Position numbers and translations under genes: made by a program | The notes under the pieces: model-generated | What the model was told of the DNA's origin: nothing | Database searches by the model: none | The model's input: the letters and a program-made list of their open reading frames with translations, nothing else | Shown here: in pieces, positions 11,992-59,406 of the stretch | How the letters are laid out: the number at the start of each line of letters is the position of its first letter | Numbering within the stretch: position 1 is the first letter of the stretch | Source of the DNA: an uncultured Phycisphaerales bacterium | Lineage (GTDB): Bacteria; Planctomycetota; Phycisphaerae; Tepidisphaerales; Tepidisphaeraceae | Assembly (NCBI GenBank): GCA_963844715.1 | Contig: CAWJPJ010000003.1 | Location: 39,458-103,457, forward strand | Reading direction: 5' to 3' | DNA: 64,000 bases

Positions 11992-12104
11992 TATTCAGCC
12001 ACTGCCTCACCATTCCGCAAATGATAGTTACCGCCAAACTGATATATTCGCAGTTGACTATCATTTATGGGATTGATACAGTTAATGAGGTAATAATGGA
12101 ATGC
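11992..12104 (+). repeat. 113-bp direct repeat, copy 1
   Basis: Identical by eye to 59294-59406 (TATTCAGCCACTGCC...AATAATGGAATGC). AT-rich, with internal IR AAATGATAGT/ACTATCATTT. Confidence 0.95.
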
Positions 12105-12544
12105 CAAATTAAGCCGGATTCCAACGCCAAGCCGCAATTCACTCAGGCCAATTCCGCCGCTGTCTCTGCTTGCGGCGGATTCACGTTCAACCTCAGCAGC
12201 GCCAAATTTGACGACATTGGCAACGGCCTCCTGTCCCCGGCTGGATCGGATTTTGATTACACCTCCGGCAATCTGTCACCCCGCGTCCTGCAGGCCTTGC
12301 TGACCCAATCGAGCGATGTAACCTCGGACTGGAGAAGCAGCAATCCCGCGGATGATTTGTTGATCGATTCCGGCCCCACGAGCGGCGAGCCGTTTGCTGG
12401 CGCTGCCCTGAAGAAATCCCCCGAAGGTGTTTCCAGCGAAGTCTCTCTCCCCGCGGCGTCCTGGCAGAGCCTGCCCCTTTTGGTGCTCATCGCCGTCCTT
12501 CCCGCCGCGCAAAAAAGTTGGCCAAATCACGCTCCCGGGCTTAA
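12105..12544 (+). pseudogene. 5'-truncated surface protein with VPLPA/PEP-CTERM-like sorting tail
   Basis: S/G/D-rich segment, then EVSLPAASWQSLPLLVLIAV (TM), then in an adjacent frame the basic tail RAKKLAKSRSRA*. No signal peptide; coding-like sequence begins at the repeat. Confidence 0.45.
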
Positions 12545-12603
12545 TCGCAACCCCGATTTACGACGTGGCATTATTTCTCCGTACCCGCTATGAAAGACGG
12601 GGA

Positions 12604-13173
12604 ATGCACCGGCGCTTGTCTAAAAATTTATTGCTGCTGTTCGTCGCGTTGGCCATGACCGGTTGCGCCTCCACCCCCAAAGCGCCTTCCGAAAATGGCG
12701 GAATGTTCCGCCGGCGGAATGAAGGCTACAGCCTGCTCTATAAACTGATGAGCGATGAGAGCCAGGTCAGTGGGATATTCATTTTGAAACATGCGGATGA
12801 TTCGGTAGGCAATGTCGTGAGGGACGTCGCCCATTTCTGTCAGTACGCCAAGACCCAGATGGACGGGTTTCCCAACACTGACAACCGCATCGAATACGAT
12901 GTGCCTGATTTACCCAGGATGGAACAGGATTCCCGCGACCTGACCGCCAAGGAAGTTGAACACGAACTGCTCGGCTCGAGCGGAAAAGAATTCGAGCTGA
13001 ATCTGATATTCACGCAGGCCCAGGCGATGGAATATGCCGTGCAGTTAGCCACGGCCCTCCAGCCCATCGAGGACGATCCGGTCCGCCATAATTTCCTGGT
13101 CTACGTCTGCGCAACAATGCGACGAACTTCACAGCCGGCTTATGGCATTGCTCGAAGTGAAACCTTAAATTGA
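12604..13173 (+). CDS. Lipoprotein, hypothetical
   Basis: MHRRLSKNLLLLFVALAMTGC lipobox. The C-terminus is probably frameshifted (alternative end QQCDELHSRLMALLEVKP*). Confidence 0.7.
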   Translation: MHRRLSKNLLLLFVALAMTGCASTPKAPSENGGMFRRRNEGYSLLYKLMSDESQVSGIFILKHADDSVGNVVRDVAHFCQYAKTQMDGFPNTDNRIEYDVPDLPRMEQDSRDLTAKEVEHELLGSSGKEFELNLIFTQAQAMEYAVQLATALQPIEDDPVRHNFLVYVCATMRRTSQPAYGIARSETLN

Positions 13174-13210
13174 CTACCCCCTTGGGCGCGTTAAGATTCC
13201 CGCTACGATC

Positions 13211-13283
<73 letters not shown>

Positions 13284-13326
13284 TTGAAATCTAAGTTCGG
13301 CCAAGCTACCCCACCATCCAAAACGA

Positions 13327-14343
13327 TCAATAAGTTTCATAGGTGAGGGTCGGATTCGCGCGAAAGACGCGATGGATCAGAGCTGTGTAGGCGATGACCA
13401 ATGGCATGCCGAGCAAGGCTATTACCAGCATCACTTCCAGTGTCCGACTACTGGAGGAACTGTTGTAAATCGTGAGGCTGGCGCTTGGGTCATTCAGGCA
13501 GGGAAGAAGGCGGGGGAACAGCCCAATGGCGGCGAGGGTCATCATCAGGCAGATGAGCGCTGAAGAAGCTGCAAACGTCCGGCCGTAATGACCGGATTTT
13601 AAACCGATCGGAATATAGACCGCGGCGCCGATGAGAAGAAGACCGACAGGCCAGGTCAGCGGCCTTGTGTAGATCGACTGGGTCAGGGATGGCGCCCATA
13701 TCAAGGTAGCGCAGGTGACTACCAGAAACATAAATATGGCGACGGCCCAGGAGGAAATTGCCATAGCCGCCAGCCCGAATCGGGCCTGTTCATCGACTTT
13801 TCCGGCCAGATAAATCGCGCCGTGCATGAAGAAGATGGATACGCCGAGTATGCCAACGAGGAGCGCATAAGGATTGAGAAGATCGAAAAACGAACCCGCG
13901 TAGGATCCATCGGTGGTGAAGGCCACGCCGCGGAGAACATTCCCGAACGCCACGCCGAATAGCAAAGCCAGAAGAAAACTGCTGGTTCCGAAGGCGGTAT
14001 CCCAGATTGTTCGCCAGCGCGGGCGATCGACCAATCCGCGGAATTCGATTGAGACGGCGCGAAATATCAGCGCGGCCAGCACGAGCATCAGCGCGAGATA
14101 AAATCCGCTGAAGACGGTTGCGTAGACGATGGGGAATGCGGCAAAGAGCGCGCCGCCGGCGGTCAGGAGCCAGACTTCGTTGCCGTCCCAAACCGGGGCG
14201 ATGGCGTTGATGAAACTTTTGCGGGTCTTGTCATCGCCATGCAGCAGATGGAGCATGCCGACGCCCAGATCGAATCCATCCAGTACGGCATATCCGCCCA
14301 GAAGAACGAAGACAAGAACAAACCAAATGGCGTTGAGGGTCAT
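13327..14343 (-). CDS. cydB: Cytochrome bd quinol oxidase subunit II
   Basis: YAVLDGFDLGVG, PVWDGNEVWL and FRAVSIEFR. ATGA overlap with cydA. Confidence 0.97.
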   Translation of the reverse strand: MTLNAIWFVLVFVLLGGYAVLDGFDLGVGMLHLLHGDDKTRKSFINAIAPVWDGNEVWLLTAGGALFAAFPIVYATVFSGFYLALMLVLAALIFRAVSIEFRGLVDRPRWRTIWDTAFGTSSFLLALLFGVAFGNVLRGVAFTTDGSYAGSFFDLLNPYALLVGILGVSIFFMHGAIYLAGKVDEQARFGLAAMAISSWAVAIFMFLVVTCATLIWAPSLTQSIYTRPLTWPVGLLLIGAAVYIPIGLKSGHYGRTFAASSALICLMMTLAAIGLFPRLLPCLNDPSASLTIYNSSSSSRTLEVMLVIALLGMPLVIAYTALIHRVFRANPTLTYETY

Positions 14344-15728
14344 GCGCGCACCAGATTCCTTTCATCAGAGCCGGTGGCGCTGGGAACGGTCGAGCGAATT
14401 TTGCCGGCCGCCATGTCCGGGCCCTCGCGAATTTTTCTGACCAACAAAAATACATAGAGCGTTCCCAGGATCAGGTAGATAACGCTGAACAATATGATGG
14501 AAAAGAGCACCACTGCGGCCGAGAGGTTTGAGGAATAGGCATCGGCGGTGCGGAACACGCCATAAACGGCCCAGGGTTGGCGACCGATTTCAGCGGCCAT
14601 CCAGCCGAGCTCGCAAGCCGCAAGCGGGAGAGGGATCGAAATCACCAGGAGCCGAAGGAATCGAGGGCTGTCGAACAGCCTCCCGCGCGCCAGTTTAATC
14701 GTGCCCCACACCATCACGACGATAAAATAGAGCCCCAAAACCACCATATTGTGGAACGAAACGAAAGTCATCCAAAGAGGAGGAATATCAGCGGCGGGAA
14801 ATTCGTTGATGCCTTTGATCTTGGCGTTAACGTTGCCGAAGGCCATCCAACTCAATAGCCCCGGCACCTCGGCGGTGTCCTTGAGCGTTGGAGGCTTGGT
14901 GAAGGGAACGGCAAACATGACCAGCGGCGCGGCGTTTTGACTGGTGTAAAGTCCTTCAATTGCCGCGAATTTGGCCGGCTGGGTGTGTGCGACCTGCTTG
15001 GCGTGCATGTGTCCGAACGGAAAGACCTCCATCACGCTGACGATGACTCCGAAAGTAATCGCCAGCTTGAGCGTATAGCGTCCGACCACATTAGCGCGAT
15101 CTTTCAGCAATACCGCCGCCGAAACCCCGGCCATGAAAAACGCTCCCGTAACGAAGGCGGCGAACATCGTGTGAAAGAAGCGGGGCCACATTGAAGGGTT
15201 GAACACGGCCGCATAAAAGCTGGTCAGCTCGGCGCGCCCGTTGTGGATGACGTAACCAGCCGGGGTCTGCATCCAGGAGTTGGCCGCCAAAATCCAGAAC
15301 GCCGAAAGCGTTGATCCGAACGCGACCATCAGGATCGCCACGAAATGCCATTTCTTGGCGATTCGGTCGCGGCCGAACAGATAAAGTCCCAAAAATCCAC
15401 TTTCGAGAAAGAAGGCGAAGACTCCCTCGGCGGCAAGCGGCGCCCCGAAGATATCGCCCACGAATTTGGAATATCGCGACCAGTTGGTCCCAAACTGAAA
15501 TTCCATTGGAATGCCGGTTGCGACGCCGACAACGAAAGTCAGCGCCAGCAGCTTTCCGAAGAAGCGTCCCGCCGCGTCGGCGACCGGGTCGTTGCGTCTC
15601 CAGGCGCGCCATTCCACGATCACCAGCAGCCACGCCAACCCGATGCTGATGGGCGGAAAAAGGAAATGGAATGCGGCGGTCAGGGCGAATTGAATTCTGC
15701 AGAGCGTTCCGACATCCAACCCATTCAT
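14340..15728 (-). CDS. cydA: Cytochrome bd quinol oxidase subunit I
   Basis: QFALTAAFHFLF, MEFQFGTNWS, EGVFAFFLES, ANSWMQTP, QPAKFAAIEG and GWMAAEIGRQPW. Confidence 0.97.
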   Translation of the reverse strand: MNGLDVGTLCRIQFALTAAFHFLFPPISIGLAWLLVIVEWRAWRRNDPVADAAGRFFGKLLALTFVVGVATGIPMEFQFGTNWSRYSKFVGDIFGAPLAAEGVFAFFLESGFLGLYLFGRDRIAKKWHFVAILMVAFGSTLSAFWILAANSWMQTPAGYVIHNGRAELTSFYAAVFNPSMWPRFFHTMFAAFVTGAFFMAGVSAAVLLKDRANVVGRYTLKLAITFGVIVSVMEVFPFGHMHAKQVAHTQPAKFAAIEGLYTSQNAAPLVMFAVPFTKPPTLKDTAEVPGLLSWMAFGNVNAKIKGINEFPAADIPPLWMTFVSFHNMVVLGLYFIVVMVWGTIKLARGRLFDSPRFLRLLVISIPLPLAACELGWMAAEIGRQPWAVYGVFRTADAYSSNLSAAVVLFSIILFSVIYLILGTLYVFLLVRKIREGPDMAAGKIRSTVPSATGSDERNLVRA

Positions 15729-15744
15729 TGTTCAGTTCCTTTAT

Positions 15745-16189: not shown

Positions 16190-16201
16190 TCGTTTGGGTC
16201 A

Positions 16202-16915
16202 CTATCCGATAAACTGTTCCGTTGATTCGTCACGAGAATCGCCTCGTGGCCTGATCTGCGCCTTGGCGGTGCGCATGTGGTCAAGCCAGTCGAGCCAGAA
16301 GTGGATGCCCGCCCCGGTCGTTGATGAAATTTCGAAAACATCCGCGGAGGGATTGAATCCGCGAACATCCCTGCGGAAGATTTCCTGGTCGAATCTGACC
16401 AGGGGGAACAAATCAATTTTCGTCAGAAGAATCGCCGAGGCGCTGCTCAGGAGCGTGTGGTATTCGGCGGCCTTATCGTCGCCGCCGCTGACGGCAAAGA
16501 CGGCGGCTGTCGCGTCCTGGCCCAGATCCAGCAGGTTGGCCAAACCTCCGGCGGCCTCGATCAAAAGGGTGTCGAAATCTTGCAGCTTGAGTTCGGACAG
16601 AGCGCGCCAGATGGAAGCGGCGTCGGGAACGGCGGCGTCGACGTGCGCGACATGGCCGCAGAGTTTCTGCAACCGCGCGGCGTCGCGATCCGAAGCGGGG
16701 TTGACCACGATTACCGCCACCCGCTTGGGCGCCGGCAGGCTGTTCAAGGCCGCCTCAATCAGCGCCGTTTTGCCGGAGCCGGGATGTCCGATGATGCGGA
16801 TTCCCAGGACGTTTGCCTGTTTCAATGCTTTGCGAATCAGCGCGGCGGGCGGGGGTCGGCCGACGTTTCGTTCTTCCGCGGCGCTGCCGACTTTGCTTTG
16901 AGTGAATTGCGTCAT
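16202..16915 (-). CDS. HypB-like P-loop GTPase lacking metal-binding Cys/His
   Basis: GHPGSGKT, LIEAAGG..LLDLGQ, GGDDKAAEY and LLTKIDL. No GCH and no ENVGNLxCP. Confidence 0.8.
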   Translation of the reverse strand: MTQFTQSKVGSAAEERNVGRPPPAALIRKALKQANVLGIRIIGHPGSGKTALIEAALNSLPAPKRVAVIVVNPASDRDAARLQKLCGHVAHVDAAVPDAASIWRALSELKLQDFDTLLIEAAGGLANLLDLGQDATAAVFAVSGGDDKAAEYHTLLSSASAILLTKIDLFPLVRFDQEIFRRDVRGFNPSADVFEISSTTGAGIHFWLDWLDHMRTAKAQIRPRGDSRDESTEQFIG

Positions 16916-23392: not shown

Positions 23393-24053
23393 ATCTGCCG
23401 GCAACAAACACCGGATTTTCCTGGTGGACGATCATCCCGTGCTGCGGCAGGGGATGGGCCGGTTGATCGACGATCAACCCGACATGATGGTCTGCGGCGA
23501 AGCCGAATCCCCGCCCGATGCCATTCGCCTGCTGGCCGCCGCCAAGGCGGATGCGGCCATCGTCGACCTGACCCTCAAAGGCGGCGACGGGCTGGAACTG
23601 TGCAAACAAATCCGCGACCGCTGGAAGGATCTGCCGATCCTGGTTGTTTCGATGCACGATGAATCGCTGTATGCCGAACGGGCGCTCAAAGCCGGCGCCC
23701 GCGGCTACATCATGAAACAGGAGCCGCAGGAAACGGTGATGAACGCCATCCGCACGGTGGTGAAAGGGCAGGTTTATCTCAGTGGGGCAATGTCCGCCAA
23801 ATTATTACAGAGTTTTTCGGGGCCGCGCTCCGCCGCCGACCTTCCGCCGCTGGCCCGGCTGACCGATCGCGAACTGGAAATTTTCCGCCTGATCGGCGCG
23901 GGGCAAAGCGTGCGGGCCATTGCGGAGAAACTTTTCCTGAGCACGAAAACCGTCGAGGCGCATAAAGAGCACATTAAGCAGAAGCTGAATTTGAAGAGCA
24001 GCAATGAACTGCTGCAATATGCAATCGAGGCGCGGGTGACGGATAGGGAATAG
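23373..24053 (+). CDS. NarL/LuxR-family response regulator
   Basis: IFLVDDHP, AIVDL, VVSMH, GYIMK and C-terminal LTDRELEIFRLIG...IAEKLFLSTKTVEAHKEHIKQKL. Confidence 0.95.
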   Translation: MAKAASKSAGNKHRIFLVDDHPVLRQGMGRLIDDQPDMMVCGEAESPPDAIRLLAAAKADAAIVDLTLKGGDGLELCKQIRDRWKDLPILVVSMHDESLYAERALKAGARGYIMKQEPQETVMNAIRTVVKGQVYLSGAMSAKLLQSFSGPRSAADLPPLARLTDRELEIFRLIGAGQSVRAIAEKLFLSTKTVEAHKEHIKQKLNLKSSNELLQYAIEARVTDRE

Positions 24054-24131
24054 ATCAGTTGCTCCCGGCAGGAACGAATCAAGAAAAAGGCTCATGCCGG
24101 TCTTGGGCAAGAAACCAAAGAGGAATTTGGA

Positions 24132-25223
24132 ATGAAATCATTAGCCCTTAAATCGCAGCGACAGAAGTCTACAGCAAAAATGTGGGGGAAAGGCATTTTT
24201 ACAATCGCTTCAGTCCTATATTTTTTAGCAATCTGCAGCTCATTACCCAGTTGTTTCGCGGGGGATCCGGTTCCCGCCGGCACGCAGCCCAGTATCGCGG
24301 CCGACGTGCCGTCGACTCCATCTCCGTCTGCGCTGCCCAAGACCTTCAAATGGACGTCGACGGGTCCGCTGGCGCAGCCAAAGTCCGGGTGGGTCTCGCT
24401 CAAGGACTTCAGCTGCGTGGTCTACAACAATCAGTACATTGTCTACATGTCCAGGGTCAACACCGCAGGCACCGCCTACAGCGGGGCCATGATGACCTTT
24501 TCCAATTGGTCTCAGATGGCCACAGCCACCCAAAACTCGATCCCTGTGGGGGGCGTTGCGCCGACCTTGATCTATTTCAGCCCGAAGAAGATCTGGGTTC
24601 TTATGTACGAGTGGGGACCTTGGCCTTTCACTTACCTGACCTCGACCGATCCCACCAATCCATCGGGCTGGTCGGAGCCGCACAAACTCTACGGGGGAAG
24701 CTCAATCGATGAAACGGTAATCTGCAACAATACGACCGCCTATCTCTTCTTCGCCAATGACAACGGAAACATTTACCGCGCCTCGATGCCGATCGGCGAC
24801 TTCCCCGGCGCATTCACCAACCCCAAGACCATCATGACCGACACCACGGCCAACCTGTTCGAGGCCGTGCAGGTCTACAAGGTGAAGGGGACGAATCAGT
24901 ACCTCATGCTCGTCGAGGCGATGGGCCGGGCGGGAAGGTATTTCCGATCCTTTACCGCGACCGATCTGGCGGGTTCGTGGACCCCGCTGGCGGCGAGCGA
25001 GAGCAATCCCTTCGCCGGCAAGGCCAACGTCACCTTCCCGGGCGGCAACGCCTGGACGAGCGACATCAGCAGCGGCGATCTGGTTCGCACCAATCCCGAC
25101 GAAACGCAGACCATCGACCCAACCAATTTGCAGTTCCTCTACCAGGGTCTCGGCCCCCATGCGGCAGGTCTCAACTACAACCAACTCCCCTGGCTACCGG
25201 GGGTGCTCACGCTGGTGCGATAG
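24132..25223 (+). CDS. GH62 alpha-L-arabinofuranosidase, secreted
   Basis: [65 protein letters not shown] and NLQFLYQG. N-terminal signal-like segment. Confidence 0.9.
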
Positions 25224-25361
25224 TCATCCGCGATGGCGCCCGAGCTAATGCCATATCAATGTACCGCGGCGGGCGGGCCGCTGGGTTGATTGCCCTTCGA
25301 CTGGGCTCAGGGCGGGCCGATTGGGGAGGATGTTACAGCTTGTTACTTTTTGTTACGGTTT

Positions 25362-26774
25362 TCACGATTGGATTAGTGTTCGCAAACTTTTCGTGTTGCG
25401 ATAAAGTCTGGATGGTTGTTGTGTTACGAGATTTGCAGGGCATGTTACAGTTTGCCGGCGACGAAATGTGTAACATGGCGGGCTCAACGGTGTTTTTCGG
25501 CGAATTCGCGAGGATGACAGGATGACAAGTTCTGCCGCATTGAGAGCGCAGTTTTGTGAAAGTTGCGATGCGGGATTCGCGAAATGCGATTTTTGCCACA
25601 GATTGAAATCAGATGCACGCGGATGGAAATTAAATCTTGTACTCTTTGATTTATCCCAAGTTGAGGGATGAGCGGTCAGTTTGGGAAGTGACCCCTTTTT
25701 GACCTCAGATGCATGCGGATGGAAATTGAATCTCGGATTCTGTGATTCATCCCAAGTTGAGGGATGAGCGGTCAATTTGGGAAGTGACCTGCTCTGTCTC
25801 GACCCTTTCGGCCTCAGGATCATGAGGTTGTGAGTGAGAGTTTTGAGAGCCATGTCTCGTTTGCGGCTCCAGGCGGTTTTGCCACGCAGGGATGAACCCA
25901 GATTCCGTTTCATCATCGAATTCACCGTTTCCACCTGCCAGCGCCGCGTGTAGCCGCATTTTCGACGCGATGTTTTTGTGTGCAGCAGCCGCATCATGTG
26001 CCGCCGCCACCGACCGCCCGGCGGCTGTTTCCGAGGTCGGGGCCGGCCGATCTTCGGCGGAATGATCGAACGCAGACCCATGTCCTGTCGAGCCAGTTCA
26101 TGGATTTCCTCCGAATCATAGCCCGCATCCGCGACCACCGTGAACCGCCGATAGGGCACGCGCCGCCACGCATCGAACACCAGCGGCTCAAAATGCGGAT
26201 GATCGGCACCGGCGCCCGTGCCGGTCCACAATGACAACGCCAGATGACAATGGCTCGCCACGCCCACCGCCAGCTTGGGCATCCGTCGGACCGTCTGGGC
26301 GCGCGTGCGGGAACGGCCTTTTTCCGCGTCTTTGGCGCGCATCCGCTGGCGGGTTTGATGGCATCGCCGTTCGTAGTGGCGGCTGACGTGGTGCGATTCG
26401 TAACAGGTGCTGTCCAACGCCAACGGCTTGGTCGACAGTTTCAAGATGCGCGCCAACGCCGCCCATCGCACCATCACGTCCAACATTCGGTCCACCCGGA
26501 ACTTTTGCAGCAGGACCTTGGCCGCCCGGCAGAGCGTGTTGTGATCCGGCGTGCGCGTCAGTCCGATATCGCGCCGCCAGGATTTGCAGTCTTCCAGCAA
26601 GGCCTCGACGCCGCGATAGCTTCGTTTCATCTGCTCCTTGAGAACGAGGCAACAGAACAACTGTGGGAGCGTGAAATCGTGACGCGAGAACTTGCAGGAA
26701 TAATCGGGAAAACACTGGCAGGCCAGATGATAGGCGGCCCGCATCACCTTCCGTGGCGATTTGCACGTGAGCAT
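25362..26774 (-). CDS. DDE transposase; ORF reads through the IS end into flanking DNA
   Basis: PDHNTLCR, LALDSTCY, VVADAGYDSE and YTRRWQVETVNSMMKR. No stop before the IR at 25789. Confidence 0.88.
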   Translation of the reverse strand: MLTCKSPRKVMRAAYHLACQCFPDYSCKFSRHDFTLPQLFCCLVLKEQMKRSYRGVEALLEDCKSWRRDIGLTRTPDHNTLCRAAKVLLQKFRVDRMLDVMVRWAALARILKLSTKPLALDSTCYESHHVSRHYERRCHQTRQRMRAKDAEKGRSRTRAQTVRRMPKLAVGVASHCHLALSLWTGTGAGADHPHFEPLVFDAWRRVPYRRFTVVADAGYDSEEIHELARQDMGLRSIIPPKIGRPRPRKQPPGGRWRRHMMRLLHTKTSRRKCGYTRRWQVETVNSMMKRNLGSSLRGKTAWSRKRDMALKTLTHNLMILRPKGSRQSRSLPKLTAHPSTWDESQNPRFNFHPHASEVKKGSLPKLTAHPSTWDKSKSTRFNFHPRASDFNLWQKSHFANPASQLSQNCALNAAELVILSSSRIRRKTPLSPPCYTFRRRQTVTCPANLVTQQPSRLYRNTKSLRTLIQS

Positions 26775-26870
26775 CCTGCATCTTCTACCAACACAATGCA
26801 GGCAGCGCTACCGAACATGCGCCTAACTTCTACGGGGTCGAGACAGAGCAGAAGTGACCCCTTTTTGACC
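25609..26870. repeat. 96-bp tandem repeat (2 copies); second copy interrupted by an IS
   Basis: Unit TCAGATGCA...ATCCCAAGTTGAGGGATGAGCGGTCA.TTTGGGAAGTGACCCCTTTTTGACC at 25609-25704, and at 25705-25789 continued at 26860-26870. Confidence 0.85.
25789..26851 (-). mobile_element. Insertion sequence with DDE transposase (IS4/IS5 superfamily)
   Basis: Perfect 17-bp IRs CTGCTCTGTCTCGACCC / GGGTCGAGACAGAGCAG. Target duplication AAGTGAC (7 bp), or GAAGTGACC (9 bp) if the IRs are 16 bp. Confidence 0.92.
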
Positions 26871-27001
26871 ATGCACTATTTGGACGGAAGTATGCGCGCC
26901 GGTATTCTTTCGCCAGCTTGATCGTGGATGGGCCGAAAGGGATTGGGTATGGCGAAGCGACAGCGGAACGCGGCCTGGATTCAGGGCCGAGAGTGCGCCT
27001 T

Positions 27002-30000
27002 ATGAGCTTAAGCAGCGCCGTCACGCTTGGGAAAATTCTCGAACAATTTCGCGACGACGCCCGCAACAATCGCGACCTCGGCGACCGTTTCGAGCGCCTG
27101 ATCCTTACCTACCTCCAGCTCGACCCGCTCTACCTCGACCGTTTTTCGGACATTTGGATGTGGAACGACTGGCCGGGCAAGGGCAAAGTCGGCGATGTCG
27201 GCATCGACCTTGTCGCGAAGGAACGCGCCACCGGCGAATACTGCGCCATCCAGTGCAAGTTCTATCTCCCCGAACACACGCTCAGCAAAGCCGACCTCGA
27301 TTCGTTCTTCACCGCCTTGGGCAAGCCCGCATTCAGCACTGGGTTGATCGTCAGCACCACAGACAAATGGGGAAAGAACGCTGAAGACGCGCTCGGGCAA
27401 ACCAAACCTGTCACCCGGCTAAGTGTTCACGACCTGGCCCAAAGCCCCATCGACTGGAGCACCTTCGACGCGCCAAGCCCGGCAAGCTCGCGCTCTCGCC
27501 GAAGAAAAAACTCCGCCTCCACCAAACGGCTGCCCTGAAGGACGTGATCGAAGGGTTCACGCAATCTGATCGCGGTAAGCTCATCATGGCCTGCGGCACG
27601 GGTAAGACGTTTACCGCGTTGCGCATCGCCGAGACCGTTGCGCCCACCGGCCATGTGCTGTTTCTGGTCCCGTCCTTGTCCCTGCTTTCTCAAACACTGC
27701 GCGAGTGGACCGCGGAATCGACGAAACCGTTTCACAGCCTCGCCGTCTGTTCGGACATCAACATCGGCAAACGGCGCAAAAAAACGAAGACGATGTCGGC
27801 GAGATCACCATGCACGATCTCGCCTTCCCCGCCACCACCAATGCCAAACAGTTGGTGGCACAGTATGAATCGCTGAAAGCCGCGGCGAAGAAGGATAAAG
27901 AAGGCCCGCGCCTCACCGTCGTCTTCTCGACCTATCAGTCCATCGAAGCCGTCAGCAAAGCTCAGAAAGCCGGGCTGCCCGCCTTCGATCTCATCATTTG
28001 CGATGAAGCCCACCGCACCACTGGCGTCACGCTTTCGGGCGAAGACGAATCCGGCTTCGTCAAGGTTCACGATGCCAACTTCCTCAAGGCCGGCAAGCGG
28101 CTCTACATGACCGCCACGCCCCGCATCTATGGCGATGAAGCCAAGACCAAGGCCAAGGAAGTCACCGCAGAACTGGCGTCGATGGACGATGAAACTCTGT
28201 TCGGCAAGGAACTCCACCGCCTCGGCTTCGGCGAAGCTGTCGGCAAGAGCCTGCTGGCCGATTACAAAGTGTTGGTGCTCGCCGTAGACGAAAAATACGT
28301 CTCCAAGGCATTCCAGAAGCAGATTGCCGACAAAAACACCGAATTGAATCTCGACGATGCCGTGAAAATCACCGGATGCTGGAACGGCCTGGCCAAGCAC
28401 TTCGAGAAATTCACGACCGCCACCGATGGCGAAGGCGACTCCACCGACTTGCAGGGCGACGCACAACCCATGCGCAGGGCTGTGGCTTTTTCGCGATCCA
28501 TCAAAGACAGCAAGGCCTTCGTCGAAAAGACGGCGCAGATCGTGGCCGCGTATAAAGAAAACCACCCGGACGACGCGACCATCCTTGAGATCCAAGCCGA
28601 CCACGTTGACGGCACGTTTGACGCCCTGCGGCGCGGCGCGTTGCTCGACTGGCTCAAGGCTGATTCTCCGCAGAATACCTGCCGCATCCTCTCCAACGCG
28701 CGGTGTCTCAGCGAAGGCGTTGACGTGCCCGCTCTGGACGCGGTGATCTTCCTAAACCCCCGCAATTCCGTCATCGATGTCGTGCAATCGGTCGGTCGAG
28801 TCATGCACGGGCCGAGGGCAAACGCTACGGCTACATCATTCTACCTGTCGGCATCCCCGCGGACATGAAGCCCGAAGACGCCTTGAAGAACAATGAGAAA
28901 TACAAAGTCGTCTGGCAGGTATTGCAAGCCCTCCGCGCCCACGACGACCGCTTTAACGCCACCATCAACCAACTGGAACTAAACAAAAACCGCCCGAATA
29001 ACATCCAGGTCATCGGCGTGGGCGGGAATGACCCGGAAACCGGCCAATCCAGCCCCGGCGACTCCAAGCCCAAGGTGCGCGAAGTGCAAGGCGCATTCGC
29101 TTTCCCCCAACTCGAAGAATGGAAAGACGCCATCTACGCCAAGATGGTCCTCAAGGTCGGCGACCGCGCCTATTGGGAAACCTGGGCCCGCGATATCGCC
29201 GCCATCGCGGAAAAGCATATCACCCGCATCAAGGCACTCTTGGATGATCCAAAATCCAAGCAGGTGAAAGCCTTCAACGAATTTCTGGCCGGTTTGCAGC
29301 AAAACCTCAACCCCGCCGTCACGCGCGAAGATGCCATCGAAATGCTGGCCCAGCATCTCATCACCAAGCCGGTGTTTGATGCCCTATTCGCCAACTACAC
29401 TTTCACCCAGCAAAACCCCGTCAGCGTATCAATGCAAAAGATGCTCGACATCTTGCACGAGCAGTCACTGGAAAAGGAAACCGCCACCCTCGAAAAGTTC
29501 TATGCCAGCGTCCGCGACCGCGCCAAAGGTTTGGACAATGTCGAAGCCCGCCAGAAAGTTGTTATCGAACTGTACGATGAATTCTTCCGCACCGCCTTCC
29601 CCCGCATGGCCGAGCGCCTTGGCATCGTCTACACGCCGGTGGAAGTGGTCGACTTCATCATCAAGAGCGTCCAGGACGTTCTGCGAGATGAGTTCAAAAG
29701 TGGGCTGGGCGAAAAGGACGTCCACATCATCGACCCCTTCACCGGCACCGGCACGTTTCTGGTTCGCCTGCTCCAATCCGGCCTCATCCCGCCGGGCAAC
29801 TTGCTTCACAAATACAAACACGAGCTGCACGCCAACGAAATCGTTCTGCTCGCCTATTACATCGCCGCGATCAACATCGAAGAAACCTTCCACGGCCTTA
29901 TTTCTCCCTCGCCCGGTACTCCGGGAGAGGGCAGGGGTGAGGGCGACTCTGGCAAATACATTCCCTTCGACGGCATCTGCCTGACCGACACCTTCCAGCT

Positions 30001-31964: not shown

Positions 31965-32005
31965 ATGCCGGGGGAGATAAAACCGGGCAGCTTTGAATTA
32001 AAAGC

Positions 32006-32040
32006 TAAGGGAACACCACCGATTAGGTGATATTCCCTTA
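32006..32040 (+). terminator. Hairpin downstream of the Type ISP gene
   Basis: TAAGGGAACACCACC-GATTA-GGTGATATTCCCTTA, 13/15 Watson-Crick pairs. Confidence 0.45.
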
Positions 32041-32186
32041 TTCGCAGACCCTCATTCCGCAAAACTCAATGCGCCGCGGCGGCGAATTCTTCGCGGGGCC
32101 GCTTCGGCGTTGCGGGGGCCAAGTTCAAGGTGAGATGATCGCCCGTGTTTGATCGGCATGAGGGACGCCGCTATGCTTGTTATGTT

Positions 32187-32426
32187 ATGGCCAGTTTGAC
32201 GATTCCCATCACCGTAGCGCAGTTGGTTGATCTGGCTCGGCAACTGCCGCCGGAGGAGCGTCGAGCGCTGCTAGACAGTCTTCTGGCTGAGCGGTTTGAC
32301 TCGGCGCTTTCCGAGGCGGACCTGCGGCGCACGGGGGAGCCGGAATTGACGGACGGCGAAATCCAGGCGGAAGTGGACGCGGTTCGCCGGCAGCGGCGGG
32401 AGGACCGGCAGCGAAAAGGGTTTTGA
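32187..32426 (+). CDS. Small antitoxin-like hypothetical protein
   Basis: ITVAQLVDLARQLPPEERRALL...ELTDGEIQAEVDAVRR. Ends 2 bp before the DUF433 gene. Confidence 0.6.
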   Translation: MASLTIPITVAQLVDLARQLPPEERRALLDSLLAERFDSALSEADLRRTGEPELTDGEIQAEVDAVRRQRREDRQRKGF

Positions 32427-32428
32427 TC

Positions 32429-32650
32429 ATGAGCGAAATCATCATCGATCCCGATATCTGCAATGGCTTGCCCACGATCCGCGGCACGCGGATTACCGCT
32501 CAGACCGTGCTGGAATTTTTGTCGGCGGGCGATAGCATCGAAGATGTGCTCGCGGAATACCCGTCGCTTTCCCGTGAGGATGTGCTGGCGTGTCTGGCTT
32601 ACTCGGCCAAACTGATGCGACATCATTTTTCGGTGCAGGCGGTCGCTTGA
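32429..32650 (+). CDS. DUF433 antitoxin
   Basis: IIIDPDICNGLPTIRGTRI...LSAGDSIEDVLAEYPSLSREDVLACLAY. Confidence 0.9.
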   Translation: MSEIIIDPDICNGLPTIRGTRITAQTVLEFLSAGDSIEDVLAEYPSLSREDVLACLAYSAKLMRHHFSVQAVA

Positions 32651-38594: not shown

Positions 38595-40465
<1,871 letters not shown>

Positions 40466-44162: not shown

Positions 44163-44194
44163 TTTGTGCATAGGTGCATTCACCTACGCACAAA
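44163..44194. promoter_or_regulatory. Near-perfect 14-bp inverted repeat in the nifJ/hypF divergent promoter
   Basis: TTTGTGCATAGGTG-CATT-CACCTACGCACAAA (13/14), with core TAGG-N8-CCTA. Confidence 0.7.
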
Positions 44195-44248
44195 CGCGGA
44201 TTTTCTCCAACTGCCGCGCTCGCGCGCGTTCATAAAATTCCCAGCCGA

Positions 44249-46632
44249 ATGAACGCCATTGTTGAATCCAAATCGGCGCCGCCCGTCGGATTATCCGAGC
44301 CCGTCTTGCGTTGCCGCTGGCAAATTACCGGCCGCGTACAGGGCGTGGGATTTCGGCCGCTTGTCTTTCGTCTGGCACGCAGAATCCCGATTCATGGAGC
44401 TGTATGGAATGATTCGCAGGGCGTGATCGCCGAGGGTCAGGGAACGCGCCGCCAGCTCGACGAATTTGTCGCCGCGCTCCGCGCCGAAGCGCCCGCGGCC
44501 GCAGTGATTCGCCAAATTATCGAGCGGCCGATCCCGGTGCGGGAAGAGAGCGGGAGTTTCGAGATTCGCCGCTCCCCGCAGGTGACGGCCGCCACCGCTG
44601 AAGTGGCCGCCGACCTCGCACTTTGTCCGGATTGTCTTGCGGAAATTCGCGATCCGGCAAATGACCGGCGCCACGGATACGCCCTGACCAACTGCACCAA
44701 CTGCGGGCCGCGATTCAGCATCATTCGCACCGTACCGTATGACCGGCTCAACACAACGATGGCCGATTTCAAGATGTGCCCGGCCTGCCGGGGGAATATG
44801 AAGATCCCAATGATCGCCGCTTTCACGCTCAGCCGACGGCATGCCGCGGCTGCGGACCGCAATTGCGATTGCTCGATCCGCGCGGAAGCCAAATCGACGA
44901 AGACCCCATTCGGGGAACCGCCGAGCGCCTGGTGCGCGGGCAAATCGTCGCAGTCAAGGGCATCGGTGGATTTCACCTGGCCGTTCGCGCCGACAACCAG
45001 GCAGCCGTCGCCCGTCTGCGCGAGTTAAAACACCGGCCCGCCAAGCCATTCGCTCTGATCTGCGTTTCATTGAAGGCGGCTCGCCGGCTGGCGCGGTTTA
45101 GCCCAGCCGGCGAGACGCTGATCGCATCCCCGGCCGCTCCGATCGTGCTGGCCGCACGCGTTGCCGACGCTCCGATTGCGCCCGCCGTCGCGCCGGGTCA
45201 ACACCGTCTGGGCGTCATGCTGGCCTACACGCCGCTGCATCATCTGATTTTCGACCGGCTCCAGACATCCGGCGTCGACACGCTTGTCATGACCAGCGGC
45301 AACGACATCGACGAGCCGCTGGTGTTTGATGACCGCGACGCGATTGGCCGCCTCGGCGAATTGTGCGACGCGATCCTGACTCACGATCGGCCGATACAGC
45401 GGGCGGTTGATGATTCCATCGTTATCGATTCGGCGGCCGCTCCTATTTTCGTTCGCCGCGCCCGTGGTTACGTTCCGACACCCATCGCGCTGTCTCCAAC
45501 CTGCGACGCGCCGCCAGGGCTGGCCGTCGGGGCTGAACTGAAATCCACCGTCGCTACATATCGTGATGGCCACGCCGTCCTTAGCCAGCACCTGGGGAAT
45601 CTCACCTGCGCTCGCACCTTTGAAGCATTCAAGCATGCGATCACCGATATCTGCGAATTGTTTTCCGTCACACCACAGTGGATCGCGCACGATCTGCATC
45701 CGGCGTATCTCAGCACGCAATATGCCCGGCAACTGGCGGATCAATGGGCCGTGCCGCTCGTCGGCGTGCAACACCATCATGCCCATGCCGCGGCGGTTTT
45801 GGCGGAAAACCAAACAACCCGCCCGGCCCTGGCTTTGATTTGCGACGGCACCGGTTACGGCACCGACGGAACGATCTGGGGCGGGGAATTGCTGATCGCC
45901 TCACGCGCTGATTTCCGCCGGATCGAACGACTTCGGCCCATGCTTCTGCCCGGCGGAGATGCCTGCGCCAAACAGCCGTGGCGATTGCGCCTGTCGCTTT
46001 TGCACGCGGCCTTCGGGCCCGATTTCGTGCGATTGCCGATTTGCCGTCGTTTGGCGAATTCGGAACAACTGCAATTCGTGCAACAGATGTTGCTCGACGG
46101 CGTCTCCTGCGTTCAGAGTAGTTCGACCGGCCGTCTTTTCGACGGCGTCGCGGCACTGTTGGGTTTGTGCCGCGAAAACCGCTTCGACGCCGAAGCGCCC
46201 ATGGCGCTGGAGGCCGCCGCGGTTCAATCAGGAAACGCGGTTCGATTGTTGAAAGAGGCCTATCGGCTGAGAGAAACCGACGGCCTGATCGAAATTGATC
46301 TGACGCCCCTGATTCGAAAAATCGCATACGGCGCGGGACACAATGGATCGGCGAACGAATTGGCGTTGCTCTTTCACGAAACGCTGGCCGCGGCCTGGGC
46401 CGCCGCTATCGAGCGGGCGATGCAAAAAACCGACCTGCGCACCGTCGCGCTGAGCGGCGGCGTCTTCTGCAACGAATTGTTCGCCAACTTGCTCAGCCGG
46501 CGATTGGAGCAACTTGGCGCCCAGGTTTTGCGGCACCGCGCGATTTCCCCCAACGATGGCGGGATCGCCTACGGCCAGGCGGCGGTGGCGTCGGCGCGAT
46601 TGAACCAGAAAGTGAGGCCAGCATGTGTTTAG
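44249..46632 (+). CDS. hypF: Hydrogenase maturation carbamoyltransferase (frameshift ~44795)
   Basis: GRVQGVGFRP, CPDC..NCTNCGPR, RRFHAQPTACRGCGP, KGIGGFHL, QHHHAH, DGTGYG, SGGVF.N and PNDGGIAYGQ. Confidence 0.95.
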
Positions 46633-54741: not shown

Positions 54742-55466
54742 AACTGAACGACGAGATGGCCGCGTTGAACCGCCGCCGGCTGCGGAAGGCGGGGGTTTTC
54801 ACGGTTGATCTAATGGGCGCGCCGGGATGCGGAAAAACCGCCCTCATCGAGGCCACGCTACAGCGTCTGCCTGCGGATCTGCGCACCGGCGTCATCGTCG
54901 GCGATTTGACCACCCAGCGCGACGCCGACCGCATGGCAAAATTCACGGATCATGTCGTGCAGATCAATACCGGCAAGGGTTGTCATCTCGAAGCCCATCA
55001 CATCATGCAAGGCATGTCGCGACTTGATATCGAAAATCTGGATCTCCTTTTTATCGAAAATGTCGGCAACCTGATCTGTCCGGTCGGATTCGATCTGGGC
55101 CAGGACGTGAAAGTGGGCATGTTCTGCACCACAGGCGGCGACGATAAGGCCGCCAAGCATCCGTATATCGTCTGCGAATCGTCTCTTCTGCTGCTCAACA
55201 AAACCGATCTGCTGAACTATGTTCCATTCAACCTGTCGTTATTCCGCGACGACGTTCACCGGCTCAATCCCGATGTCGAACTGATGGAACTGTCGGCCAT
55301 CAGCGCCGACGGGATGGATGCCTGGATCAATTGGCTCGACGCGCAGCGGCAAGCATCAAATCTGAAATCATTGCATCAAACTGCAAACACCCGGATAATC
55401 TGCGCCGACGAAATGACGAATCCATGTGTGGTCAATACCGCCACGGCGAGATGCGGACTTTTATGA
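54711..55466 (+). CDS. hypB: Hydrogenase nickel incorporation GTPase (canonical)
   Basis: [38 protein letters not shown] and NKTDL. Confidence 0.95.
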
Positions 55467-56415
55467 GATCGCCAAATCCGAGCGATTCGACATGCCCATC
55501 GCAGAAGGCGATGTTGATGACACCCCCAATATGGCGATCGGCTTTTGACGGGTTATATGGCTCCTTGGCCAAAGGAATACGATTGCCAAGCCAAGAGGCT
55601 GCGGCGATGTCGGACATTCGGCCGCCGGAACAATAGTTTGAAGTGTAATACAGGCAATCGTTGTAATCCAAAGGGCTCACAATCGCTCCGGATTGCGGCC
55701 TGGTGCCGCAGTCAGCGAAAAGCAGTGTCTCAGCGGATTTGTAGACGCGGTCAAGACGACAGCGGAGTGGTTGGCCGAGTTTGCCCGGAGCATTGTTGTC
55801 CCCGAATACGCTGTAAGAGTTACCTGCAACGGCGAATACAGTATTGCCAAACTGATCTGTCAGCATCGTCATGTCGGCATTGATACCGTAGGAAATGGGG
55901 AAATAGGGTCCGCCGCTCACGTTGTTGAACAGGCGATAACCAGGATTCGATCCGGTAAGCCACACGTCGCTGGGGCATTGAAAAACCTTCGTCTGGGTTT
56001 GCGGGGCGTTCTCGAAGTTGCTGTCCCCTGTACTGTCCTTGCCGCCCTGACCGAGATAAGGAATCAGGGAACTGGCCCAGTCTTTCGCGACGTAGTTTGT
56101 GGGTGGGTAAGTGGCACCGCTTGGAGTGGGATTATCACGATAGGCGAAATAAGAAGCCGGCATGGTATCGTTGATCTTGGCCCACTTATCATCGCAGACC
56201 GTCGGCAGACGACGCTGGTGATCGTTCGCAAAAAGCAGCGCGGCCGTTACCAATTGCCGCAAGTTGGATTGACACTGAATCAGTTGTGCCTGTGCCCGCG
56301 CTTTGTTGAGCGCCGGCAAGAGTATTCCGATCAAGACCGCAATGATGCCGATCACAACCAGCAGTTCGACAAGCGTGAATCCGTTTGCTTTGCTTTTGCC
56401 CTGACCTTGTTTCAT
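55432..56415 (-). CDS. DUF1559 prepilin-type N-terminal cleavage/methylation protein with H-X9-DG motif
   Basis: [40 protein letters not shown] and [15 protein letters not shown]. Confidence 0.92.
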
Positions 56416-58815
56416 GGGTGCCTCCGAGGCATGTGTGCGGACTGTGTGGCGAGATGGCGTAATGGGTTTGTGTTTCGGCGGCGCCGTGTGAGCAACACCG
56501 CCATATTCAGAACAAGAAATGAAGTAGTCGCCGGTTCGGGGACATTGACCAGCAGACCGTTGACGGCGGCGAACGCGTCCAATGCCGCCATATCCGCCGC
56601 CGGCTGTGAAACGTCCGTGCCGTTGTCCGACAGACCGAAGTTCGCGGCAAACATATTGAAATCCGCGATATTCACCGTGCCGTAGTAACCGAAATCTCCG
56701 GCTTCCCAGCCGAGCGTGGTGGGCAGGCCGAAATTGGGGGCGAAGATGTTGAAGTCGGTGATGTTCACACTGCCGTCGAGGTTGGCGTCGCCGTCGAGGG
56801 TGTACGCCACTTCGATCTGGTTGGTGGGAACCGTGGTGCCCAGGACGCCGTCGTTGCCGTCGACGAGGCCGACGCCGTAGCCGGACAATCCAGCGCTGCT
56901 GATGATTGCACCGCTTTTGATGTAACCGAGGATCGACGAGAAAGTCGGGCCGGTGGTGCTGGTGCCGGTGGTGGCATCGGTGAAGTGATTATTGTTGATG
57001 TCGAAAACCGAGTTCCCGTTGATCGTCAGGGACGACATCGAGCTGCCGCCGGTGTTGGTGGCCAGTTTCAGCGTATTGGTAACAGTGCCGTTGCCGACCG
57101 TTACACTCCCCGCGCCGCTAATTGTGCCCACGGTCTGATTGCCGTTGACCACCAGCGCGCCGTTGTTGTTGATCGCCACGCCGTTGCCGCCCAGCGCTCC
57201 ATTGGCATTGACGTCAAGCGTGCTGCCCGTGCCGATTGCCACGGTCGTGGCGGCCAAAAGACTGCCGGCGGAATTCAGATTGACGATGCCATTGCCCGTG
57301 AAGTTAATCGCACTGGCCACATTGTGGTCGTTCAGCGCGCCCAGGTTCAGGGATCCCAATCCGCTGCCGTTGTTGGAAACATTAAAAGTGACGCTGCTGT
57401 TGACCGATGTTCCGCCGAACGTGACGGAATAAGGAGTGTTGGCGCCGCTGCCGGCCCCGGTCACGTTCAGGGTTGAACCGGCGTTCATCGTCAGCGAGCC
57501 AAGCGTGGCGGTGCTGCTGGGAATCTGGAGCCCATAGCTTGTTCCGGCCGCAATGGTGGTCGGCACCGTGGGGGATAGCGCGTTGTAATACGAGATCGTG
57601 CTGCTCGACACGTAAGCGGCATTCGATGTACTCAGCAGGTTGTTCTGCACTAATTCCTGACCAAACAAAAGCCAGTCGTTGACATCGTTGAATCCCAGAC
57701 CGTTCATATCGGCCGCGGGATTGAACGCCATGCCGTTGCCGGCGACGTTGTTGGAGAAGTTAAAAACGTCCGTCGTGTTGATGTGTCCGTCTTCGTTGAG
57801 ATCGCCAAGCCCGAGGCCGTTGAGCGTCGAGTGCCCCAGGTCGGGAACCTCGCTGGCGGTGAATCGCTGGATGCTGTCATTGCCATCCGGGCGATAGCTG
57901 ACAACCGTGCCGACATTGTTTCCGTTCTGAAGGTTACTAAAGCCGTAGGCGAATAAAGTCTGGTCGATTTGTCCGGCCAATCCGCCCTGATAGGTCACAC
58001 CGTTAATGGTGTTGTTCCCTGTTGTGACCATGTTCAGAATCTGCGCGTTGGTGATGCCGGCCGGCAGATTGAGATAAACATATTCGCTGGTGGCGGTCCC
58101 ATCCGATTGGATATCGAACTGCCGGTTTTCATAGGTTGTGGGGGCCGACGCAAACGGGGCGAAACTTTGAACGCTGGACGTCGGCGTTCCGCGATCGACA
58201 TAAATCGTGTCATACCAGTCGCTATAAACTGGAGGAGCGGTGGGATCAGGATTGTGGCGGAAGGAGATGACTTCAAGGTAATGATATCCGATGGAAAGGT
58301 TGGCGGTGTCGATGGTTTGGGAATAGGCGCCGTTTCCGTTGGCGTTGTAATATCCGGGTGAAGAATTGGCGAAATTCTGATAGCCGTAGGAAACATCGCC
58401 GGTGATCGTGTCGACCTGCCCGACCCCCGCGCTTTGACTGGCCGTCGGCGTGGTGGATGTTGTGCCGTTGGCGGCCACGGTGATCGTGCCGCCGTCGATT
58501 GTGAACTGGGCGTTGTCGCCGTCGGCGTCCTGGTCGTGATAGACCTGCGTTGGAGAAACCTGCAGATTGGCTTCAACGGTGTTCAGCGACAAGACGAAAG
58601 AAGAAGCGGTCACCACGTTGACGGCGGTATTTCTCTCGGTGCCGTTGCTGTAATTGGCATTGGGTTCCCATCCGCCCGGCGTCGTGCCGGTTCCGGTCTG
58701 GCTGGCCATCACGGAAGCAACATTGCTTGTCGCGATCGAGCCGGTTGGCGTCGGGAGGCCATAGATGAGGAAGCCGTCATTGGTTGAATAAGAGCTGGTG
58801 GTGCTGCCCTTTTCC
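56412..58815 (-). pseudogene. PEP-CTERM surface protein with dockerin-like repeats, apparently 5'-truncated
   Basis: T/S/G/N-rich beta-repeat body, [25 protein letters not shown] and [24 protein letters not shown]. The first ~115 codons of the called ORF (to 59156) are not protein-like and have no signal peptide. Confidence 0.7.
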
Positions 58816-59293
58816 GGGGTTCTGATCTGCGGTTTTGGAAGCATCCCACCGCAAATCCTGGGCGCACTACATCCCAATGCTTGTCGTTCATTTGACTCTG
58901 ATTTGCTTCCCCAAACCCGCTTCTGTCGGCTCAAAGTGCAGGCAACACAGCATTGTTGTGAGCTGACGGCCGAATGGATTGGTGGAACATGATCGAGTTG
59001 CCGACCATCGGCTCTAGCAGTGATTGCCCTCGGGCCGCTTAGTAAACATTGCCGGACCAATTCCCGACCGCCTCGGGCATATACATTGCACGCCGATTGT
59101 GACAGCAAGAGCGGGTTGGCTGACCGTCTATGTGCGTTTTTGATGCAGATGCGCATGCACCTCCGGGTTGTCGATCACCTCATCCTGGATTCGTCCCGAC
59201 ACTTTGTGCGCATTCCTTTGAATGCTCCGTCACCTCCAATTATTACCCTGCTCCGTGCGCAGATGTTCGCATTGCACCTGACTTACAATCGCT

Positions 59294-59406
59294 TATTCAG
59301 CCACTGCCTCACCATTCCGCAAATGATAGTTACCGCCAAACTGATATATTCGCAGTTGACTATCATTTATGGGATTGATACAGTTAATGAGGTAATAATG
59401 GAATGC
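59294..59406 (+). repeat. 113-bp direct repeat, copy 2
   Basis: Identical by eye to 11992-12104. Lies about 140 bp upstream of the relaxase start. Confidence 0.95.

Follow-up and report, generated by a model that had tools for sequence, protein, structure and literature searches.

In a 64,000-nt stretch of DNA from an uncultured Phycisphaerales bacterium (hereafter the window), two identical 113-bp sequences (the 113-mer) bracket about 47 kb of cargo genes, and we lean towards the explanation that the left copy is the scar of an illegitimate recombination linked to a relaxase nicking site (nic), probably one between two related elements. The right copy, together with both of its flanks, appears from comparison with sister modules to be the native promoter state of a relaxase operon. 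The site seems to be the edge of the origin of transfer (oriT) of this relaxase, which may well itself have caused the duplication. Most of an integrative mobilizable element (IME) of roughly 55-62 kb at tRNA-Ser(CGA) lies in the window; it extends from position 9134 to just beyond the contig end, and the entire stretch with both copies of the 113-mer appears to be one mobile island that moves as a unit by means of its integrase. The initial annotation had regarded the pair as a possible cargo-loading site. However, the comparisons below do not support a dedicated loading site or a pair of borders, as the two copies do not seem to be equivalent.

The two copies of the 113-bp repeat

The source genome (G000) consists of eight contigs (C1-C8; 4.55 Mb, 85% complete), and the window lies at the end of C3. 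The features that bear on the duplication are:

11992-12104, + strand: left copy of the 113-mer, an orphan that ends 1 nt beyond the position equivalent to the predicted nick
12096-12593, + strand: fusion open reading frame (ORF) of 165 amino acids (aa), with its first 3 codons from the 113-mer and the rest from the C-terminal part of a PEP-CTERM-like secreted protein
58808-58992, + strand: 3' fragment of a backbone gene, here called gene Z
59294-59406, + strand: right copy of the 113-mer, in the promoter region of the relaxase operon
59405-59472, - strand: predicted oriT core, with the motif GCAAGATA on the top strand at 59405-59412 (TATCTTG^C on the bottom strand) and inverted repeat (IR) arms at 59416-59424 and 59464-59472
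59546-61091, + strand: MobA/VirD2-like relaxase with DUF3363 (Pfam), in three frames in this assembly

The two copies are in direct orientation and identical at 113/113 positions, and an exact sequence of this length could not arise twice by chance. The window has no further long direct repeats, and an ungapped comparison gives this pair as 127 nt at 96% with a spacing of 47302. The bases that border them are unlike (11991 g and 59293 t on the left; 12105 c and 59407 a on the right), and past the edges the likeness is weak, with 6/9 bases shared on the right and 3/5 on the left. Two IRs are nested in the repeat, which in the left copy are the outer pair AAATGATAGT (12019-12028) and ACTATCATTT (12057-12066) and the inner pair AACTG (12037-12041) and CAGTT (12051-12055). 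No transposase adjoins either copy; the closest DDE matches in Pfam are at 3690-4235 and 25362-26774, so that no transposase lies less than 8 kb from either copy, whereas a composite transposon would have one at its ends. A repeat of 113 bp is also far longer than any target-site duplication known to us. In the whole source genome, the 113-mer occurs as two full copies and one partial copy (64 nt, 87.5%, C1:41863-41926), the latter sitting upstream of another relaxase. Thus, the 113-mer is not a dispersed repeat. On the identity of the copies, the nested IRs and the lack of an adjacent transposase, the sequence and the Pfam matches agree with the initial annotation.

A misassembly is very unlikely, because the same gene order and both copies are found at 99.8% identity in the assembly of another organism (G061, CAWFRU010000004.1, a contig of 2.07 Mb), where each copy is again identical at 113/113 positions and the two lie 54,837 bp apart. 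The two assemblies are independent, as shown by the frame breaks, which sit at different places in the window and in the G061 copy. One may suspect that a circular molecule or another locus bearing the 113-mer was threaded into the contig, since the assembly is noisy with many split genes, the contig end falls inside the island, and contigs built with k=31 cannot link the flanks. However, neither the identical order on the long G061 contig nor the differing frameshifts would be expected of such an artefact, the flank depth is alike on both sides, and we therefore find this explanation hardly credible. In Logan contigs from four runs of two studies, all four flanks of the 113-mer are present. 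The bin of the 113-mer is deeper than its flanks in three of these runs (X1, X3 and X6; in X1, 51.6 compared with 18.6 and 23.5), and run X4 has a scant excess (5.2 compared with 4.8 and 3.4). The k=31 contigs break at both edges of the 113-mer and are silent on linkage, the deletion form and a circle. Genes split in two or three frames occur at 1-960, 33141-35689, 38595-39441, 44174-46632 and 59546-61091 of the window, and include those of biotin carboxylase, H+-PPase, adenylate kinase, HypF and the relaxase. These splits look like assembly indel noise, not decay, because the 99.8%-identical G061 copy is split elsewhere and the relaxase homologue in genome G019 is whole (524 aa; the G061 relaxase is split at other places).

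The 113-mer lies between divergent genes and directly upstream of the relaxase, as had been annotated. On the + strand, each copy has a tandem of sigma-70-like sites, ATGATA-16-TATATT and TTGACT-17-TACAGT, and a 10-bp IR overlaps both -35 boxes. Because a perfect 10-bp IR in 113 nt is improbable by chance (about 0.006 occurrences expected by our own estimate), this IR may function as an operator. The motif GATATATT had been compared with T-DNA borders, but it aligns with CATAAT in the C1 and G019 sister modules and with TATAAT in those of C5 and C6; it is thus a -10 box and not a relic of a T-border. In C1 and G019, the 3' 64-72 nt of the 113-mer are contiguous with the leader and the relaxase. 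In C5, C6 and a second element of G061, a different promoter stands before the same leader and the homology begins at TGGAATGC; the C5 and C6 modules (relaxase segments about 92% identical) are without the 113-mer and keep the leader. The 3' fragment of gene Z lies about 300 nt to the left of the right copy. A 297-aa ORF at L041:9159-10052 represents the gene in full length, and this gene sits upstream of the relaxase in the second G061 element (96% to the fragment) and in the C5 element (77% over 137 nt). The position of this fragment indicates that the relaxase backbone reaches at least 486 nt to the left of the right copy, and that the cargo was joined to the backbone inside gene Z and not at the 113-mer. 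A PDB sequence search with the intact G019 relaxase returned nothing meaningful.

The left copy continues into other sequence and not into the leader, and the 5' half of the nick-like core and its IR are absent there. Residues 6-146 of the fusion ORF align with residues 91-240 of a 240-aa signal-peptide/PEP-CTERM-like protein of genome G396 (35% identity, E 3e-20). Full-length relatives have 215-240 aa, and full-length paralogues of the truncated gene are found at C7:437-438 kb and C6:858 kb. The junction at 12104/12105 removes about 90 N-terminal codons, including the signal peptide. Since it cuts a gene, the left junction is a scar and not a dedicated site. On the bottom strand it reads AATTTGG^C, which agrees with TATCTTG^C at 4/7 positions. 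A tblastx comparison of 12105-13300 with 59407-64000 found no remnant relaxase after the left copy.

A predicted oriT beyond the right copy

Downstream of the right copy is a leader of about 140 nt that is about 89-99% conserved over all modules compared, in which the genes are 83-92% alike. It opens with GCAAGATAAA, followed by the arms GGGTGATTC and GAATCACCC, so that the order on the bottom strand is IR, about 9 nt, and TATCTTG^C. The bottom-strand sequence TATCTTGC at 59405-59412 has 7/8 positions of the MOBP nick consensus (C/T)ATCCTG(C/T). Researchers have described this core with a proximal IR in RP4, T-DNA borders and the tfs4 element of H. pylori (PMC3772185). The motif GCAAG(A/G)TAAA stands upstream of all nine relaxase genes examined, including relaxases that are only 44-52% identical, and in five of the nine a perfect IR of 8-10 bp starts 11-13 nt after the motif, which shuffled sequences reached in 16, 2, 4, 1 and 0 of 300 trials. 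The arm sequences vary between subfamilies, those of C7a being different. On C6, the motif also occurs at two other sites, where the arms measure 12 and 15 bp. We infer that the leader holds the oriT and that the relaxase would nick between 59405 and 59406.

Because the leader is retained in the C5 and C6 modules, which have no 113-mer, the relaxase would recognise its site in the leader. The 113-mer ends at 59406, which is 1 nt past the predicted nick. Thus, the earlier description of the repeat as a promoter or oriT-like site was right in that the 113-mer carries promoter-like sites and abuts the predicted nick, but the 113-mer itself is not the nick or recognition core, which would be in the leader and is absent at the left copy. 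The involvement of the relaxase had been called speculative, and with the predicted nick directly at the repeat it is now plausible. An Rfam search of 58500-59800 returned no family.

The predicted site resembles MOBP oriTs (PMC3772185) in its intergenic position just upstream of a VirD2-like relaxase and in the order of an IR, about 9 nt and, on one strand, a core like YATC-TG^C. Diverged relaxases of the source genome have this core in conserved form. However, it reads ATCTTG instead of ATCCTG (one subfamily has ACCTTG), a long loop of 37-46 nt separates the arms, and the relaxase has DUF3363 and is without a solved relative. The site offers a concrete candidate oriT, with nick core and IR, for DUF3363/VirD2-like relaxases, which have no solved structure and almost no literature.

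Origin of the duplication

The left copy corresponds to the 113 nt of the leading side, with foreign DNA attached where the predicted nick would be. A relaxase would produce such a junction by ligating the 5' end that it holds to another 3' end. By the route that we deem likeliest, a related element with att site, AbiE, small genes, repeat and oriT would have stood in tandem with the cargo island, and the DNA from the nick of that element to the nick-like site would then have been lost by deletion, fusing both. A precedent is the tandem accretion seen today at the same tRNA-Ser gene, where the end of C3 joins C5. Accretion of IMEs has been described (PMC5704250), and so has the recombination of direct oriT copies by relaxases, in the Mob02281/oriT system (PMC4902927). 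Recombination of the latter kind would remove what lies between two nick sites, and the resulting junction would fall precisely at the nick, as does the one at 12104/12105. However, one partner here would be only a nick-like site within a gene, and the event is read from its scar. The duplication could also have arisen by the capture of an aberrantly terminated strand circle, or by the insertion of a short leading-end strand. The order of these events and the part of the relaxase in them are our interpretation of the repeat, the truncated genes and the leader motif. If correct, this is a natural case of a repeat boundary at a predicted nick, which points to relaxase-linked recombination as a route by which islands are rebuilt.

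Several observations weigh against this explanation. A 7/8 match to the nick consensus is expected about 0.6 times by chance per 250 bp by our own estimate, and the nick was assigned post hoc. That the 113-mer ends only 1 nt from the predicted nick may also be due to chance. The IR is imperfect in this island and in the second G061 element (6 perfect bases, 8/9 with one mismatch), and shuffled sequences equal it in 143/300 cases; the motif sites of C7b and C8 are without a significant IR. The bottom strand of the leader folds no better than shuffled sequence (z -0.02), nor does the 113-mer as a single strand (z -1.38, shuffles folding as well), and an alignment fold of six leaders gave 1 compensatory pair in 45, with too little variation to test. 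In the unpublished genome G004, the homology upstream of the 73-aa small gene stops 13 nt before the 113-mer, and this limit would fit equally well if the bare 113 nt had been inserted or if two elements had been fused. Finally, the genomes and metagenomes scanned yielded neither an intact element of the AbiE side that has a relaxase of its own nor a remnant of an internal att, so that the second element is hypothetical.

The initial annotation had proposed that the cargo was cointegrated at the repeat. In its explicit form, a compact element would have taken up a 47-kb circle with one 113-mer by a Campbell-type integration, and the cargo could leave again by recombination between the copies. 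Exact direct repeats do bracket the segment, without 12105-59406 only 7.6 kb would remain between the att fragment (9134) and the end of the window, which form a plausible and complete minimal element (att, AbiE, small genes, repeat, oriT, relaxase, RHH, AlpA and integrase), and 113 bp of identity is sufficient for homologous recombination. The uptake of a circle also overlaps with the strand-circle route considered above, and relaxases are able to recombine oriT copies (PMC4902927). However, the left junction cuts a gene, the backbone passes the right copy, and the circle would have needed a repeat already fused to the truncated gene together with the gene Z fragment, so that it would itself derive from a related element. 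The cargo is older than the duplication, and the sister island described below has the cargo block without a duplicated repeat. The separate partners, namely a one-copy element and a circle, are not among the loci found, and the k=31 contigs are uninformative here. We therefore consider this integration unlikely, although the idea of cointegration as such finds partial support. A scan for the conserved part of the 113-mer gave 3 loci in 2 records of public genomes and 2 loci in metagenomes; 3/61 genomes and 5/401 genomes of two further sets matched, the 24-nt matches in G022 being dismissed as trivial. The cargo-free elements or alternative cargos expected at a loading site were not found in any of these, nor was a circle junction.

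A duplication or gene conversion of the promoter/operator, which would co-activate the cargo genes at the left end with the transfer genes, is suggested by the fact that both copies carry the same promoter-like sites and 10-bp IR. The downstream ORF also receives its Shine-Dalgarno sequence and an in-frame ATG from the left copy, and a lipoprotein gene and a tRNA-Gly come next. However, the ORF that would be driven is truncated and has lost its signal peptide, which indicates that it was not shaped by selection; the likeness past the repeat is weak (6/9 right, 3/5 left), and gene conversion leaves the lost 5' part of the gene unexplained. A regulatory origin is thus quite improbable.

In Agrobacterium, T-DNA is enclosed by direct repeats, the 25-bp borders, which are nicked by the VirD2 relaxase, and the junction is precise on the side bound by the relaxase. 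The window resembles this arrangement in that a segment is enclosed by direct repeats and a MobA/VirD2-like relaxase gene is adjacent, and the left junction is weakly like the nick core (4/7), so that one could imagine that the relaxase nicks both copies and transfers the 47-kb block only. However, only one copy has the nick core and recognition repeat, as the 5' half of the core and the IR are outside the 113-mer and absent at the left copy. The repeat consists of 113 bp of promoter, whereas a border has 25 bp, the common motif GATATATT belongs to the promoter as its -10 box, the C5 and C6 modules keep the leader without the 113-mer, and G061 has the island only as a whole. Such a pair of borders is highly improbable. 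In a bolder variant, the relaxase would initiate at the true oriT and terminate at the left copy, at the hybrid nick, and the 47-kb hydrogenase/PFOR block would be released with one repeat, pass between bacteria in the manner of T-DNA and be recaptured by related elements via the 113-mer. This is decidedly improbable, but if true it would mean that planctomycete islands have a relaxase-driven system of cargo exchange. For the duplication, we thus favour nic-linked recombination, probably between related elements.

The island, its transfer and its cargo

The remaining features of the island are:

9134-9193, - strand: left end of the island, an attachment (att) repeat made of the 3' 60 nt of tRNA-Ser(CGA) (sequence match)
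9497-11400, + strand: AbiEi/AbiEii toxin-antitoxin pair (Pfam PF09952, 4e-12; PF08843, 3.4e-6)
11516-11944, - strand: two small genes of 67 aa (weak DUF2188 match) and 73 aa (in no known family), divergent from the left 113-mer
12604-13173, + strand: lipoprotein gene
13211-13283, + strand: extra tRNA-Gly(CCC), 97% identical to C7:176854-176928
13327-15728, - strand: cytochrome bd oxidase, subunits II and I (Pfam)
16202-55466, no strand assigned: core cargo block (Pfam families; synteny with G001:C7 and G002:C22)
55432-58844, - strand: DUF1559/N-methyl protein and large PEP-CTERM surface protein (Pfam)
61091-61582, + strand: ribbon-helix-helix (RHH, CopG-like) protein (Pfam)
62290-62589, + strand: AlpA-type HTH_17 protein (Pfam)
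62593-64000, + strand: tyrosine integrase, which runs off the contig (Pfam; 451 aa in G061)

The limits of the island are given by the att repeat. In the window the 60-mer occurs once, and exact copies are found at C5:364573-364632 and C5:384181-384240, where they bracket a 19.6-kb element with a relaxase and an integrase, beside the full tRNA-Ser gene (C5:364543-364631). This second element (C5:364543-384304) stands in tandem between the island and the full tRNA-Ser(CGA), and it contains a relaxase, an RHH protein, an AlpA-like protein and an integrase that is 47% identical. The window end at 64000 is also the end of C3, and only about 5 nt separate it from the end of C5, which follows in reverse orientation. 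In G061, the homology begins exactly at 9134, and positions 9134-55372 and 55373-64000 of the window are matched at 99.8% (about 55 kb). The att repeat (60-68 nt) reappears after the G061 integrase, adjoining the full tRNA-Ser, and the 60-mer is found only at the two island ends there. Outside the island, the likeness to the source genome drops to 66-79%, both in the flanks of the G061 island and in 9 kb of ordinary chromosome taken as a sample. The difference between 99.8% in the island and 66-79% outside it indicates a recent exchange of the whole island between different organisms. The differing sequences to the left of 9134 in the Logan runs, which may be ordinary tRNA-Ser genes of other organisms, were left unused. 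Between 55372 and 55373 of the window, at the end of the syntenic core block, G061 has an extra 7.5 kb, part of which resembles C1:24111-25040 (67%), a stretch of the sister island with the acetyl-CoA synthetase gene on one side and the H+-PPase gene on the other.

The element has what defines an IME, that is, a PF00589 integrase from 62593 with att repeats at tRNA-Ser, and its own relaxase (PF03432 and PF11843) with an oriT predicted from the leader. The island has no matches to a type IV coupling protein or VirB4; all 6 PF02534 and 6 PF03135 matches of the genome are on C6, C7 or C8. In the absence of these genes, the island is an IME for which helpers may be resident in the genome. Further relaxase genes, three in number and 44-52% identical, at C7:13413-16468, C7:913926-916979 and C8:845250-848526 adjoin coupling-protein genes of type IV secretion systems, each with GCAAG(A/G)TAAA upstream. 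These loci on C7 and C8 are candidate conjugative helpers for the island, judging by their gene content.

With tRNA-gene IMEs and their accretions (PMC5704250), the island shares a tyrosine integrase, an AlpA-type protein, a relaxase with oriT, the lack of mating-pore genes, att at the 3' end of a tRNA gene, a second element in tandem, and transfer of the whole composite. However, the AbiE part is not separated from the remainder by an internal att, and it therefore does not qualify as a classical cis-mobilizable element, which would retain its own attL and attR; the att 60-mer is only at the island ends. The join is at an oriT edge and not at att, the host is a planctomycete of the class Phycisphaerae, and the cargo is about 40 kb of energy metabolism, by which the island departs from the known accretions in that source. 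It is an IME found in Phycisphaerae, with an unusual metabolic cargo and a predicted oriT. Our literature search found nothing on mobile islands in Phycisphaerae.

The core block encodes HypB-like proteins, PEPCK, a PPDK regulator, a PAS kinase and LuxR regulator (a two-component pair), H+-PPase, ADP-forming acetyl-CoA synthetase, an adenylate kinase paralogue, a DHODH-like protein, PFOR, HypF/D/E, HoxEFUYH and HypB. It is syntenic with the same-genus genomes G001 and G002 over 16.2-55.4 kb of the window, save for PEPCK and an insert at 24.0-33.2 kb. The insert (24050-33165) is absent from the block in G001, G002 and C1, and it is therefore a later addition to the cargo. It encodes a GH62 arabinofuranosidase, a type ISP restriction-modification enzyme that is split in three, a DUF5615 protein and an IS4-like transposase, next to which lie tandem repeats of 91 nt (25603-25789).

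The source genome also carries a second, diverged copy of the block (70-79% at the nucleotide level) on C1 and at the end of C6. It is part of a sister island of about 57 kb at tRNA-Met (C6:1247348-1256906 and C1:1-47480), in which the block is followed by a relaxase module (85% identical), an integrase and tRNA-Met; a 37-nt tRNA-Met repeat lies 9.5 kb from the C6 end. The order is HypB/HoxHYU at the C6 end, HypEDF, PFOR to HypB, 6.4 kb of unknown DNA, the relaxase module and the integrase, and HoxE and HoxF were not found in the sister island. Relative to the relaxase, its block is inverted when compared with the window, and it has no duplicated 113-mer. Since a diverged copy of the cargo thus exists without the duplicated repeat, the cargo is old, and the 47 kb between the two copies of the 113-mer would be a long-standing cargo of this island family that predates the duplication. 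Inverted HypB paralogues (16466-16528 and 55092-55154) bracket the core block, and recombination between them could explain the inversion between the islands. In six genes compared with G001, the C1 copy has 78-87% identity and the window copy 75-83%, the C1 copy being higher in 5/6; the lower likeness of the window copy fits its arrival with the island.

Three other interpretations of this region were rejected. The cargo block is not native chromosome, as diverged PEPCK, H+-PPase and adenylate kinase genes are found elsewhere in the genome and the block came with the island. C1 does not come from a second organism in the bin, as it has multi-copy insertion sequences (IS) in common with all large contigs at 99.3-99.9%. 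The extra tRNA-Gly is not a second att site, as there is no partial tRNA-Gly repeat elsewhere on the contig. Pfam searches of greedy ORFs on C1 were mostly empty because frame breaks occur throughout this contig.

The island places a fermentative and hydrogen-metabolism block of about 40 kb (PFOR, bidirectional NiFe hydrogenase with its maturation genes, ADP-forming acetyl-CoA synthetase, H+-PPase, PEPCK and cytochrome bd) on a mobilizable element. This block travels between soil and bog Phycisphaerae at 99.8% identity, which bears on the spread of anaerobic capacities in peat and soil.

Some minor observations concern the neighbouring sequence. An AbiE homologue is present at 90% in G004, and homologues of the 73-aa gene are found in G004 (82% at the nucleotide level) and G253. 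The PEP-CTERM ORF is listed as 56412-59156, and its first 100 codons or so look non-coding. Outside the island, positions 3677-4585 of the window contain an IS of 895 bp, with about 30 copies at 99.3-99.9% over all large contigs, and a second IS of 1.39 kb is also multi-copy and present on C1. Positions 7344-7685 and 9015-9117 of the window belong to a repeat family of the type ATCCTAATCTT, which has dozens of partial copies on C5 and C6, and a 56-nt tandem pair lies directly outside the att fragment.

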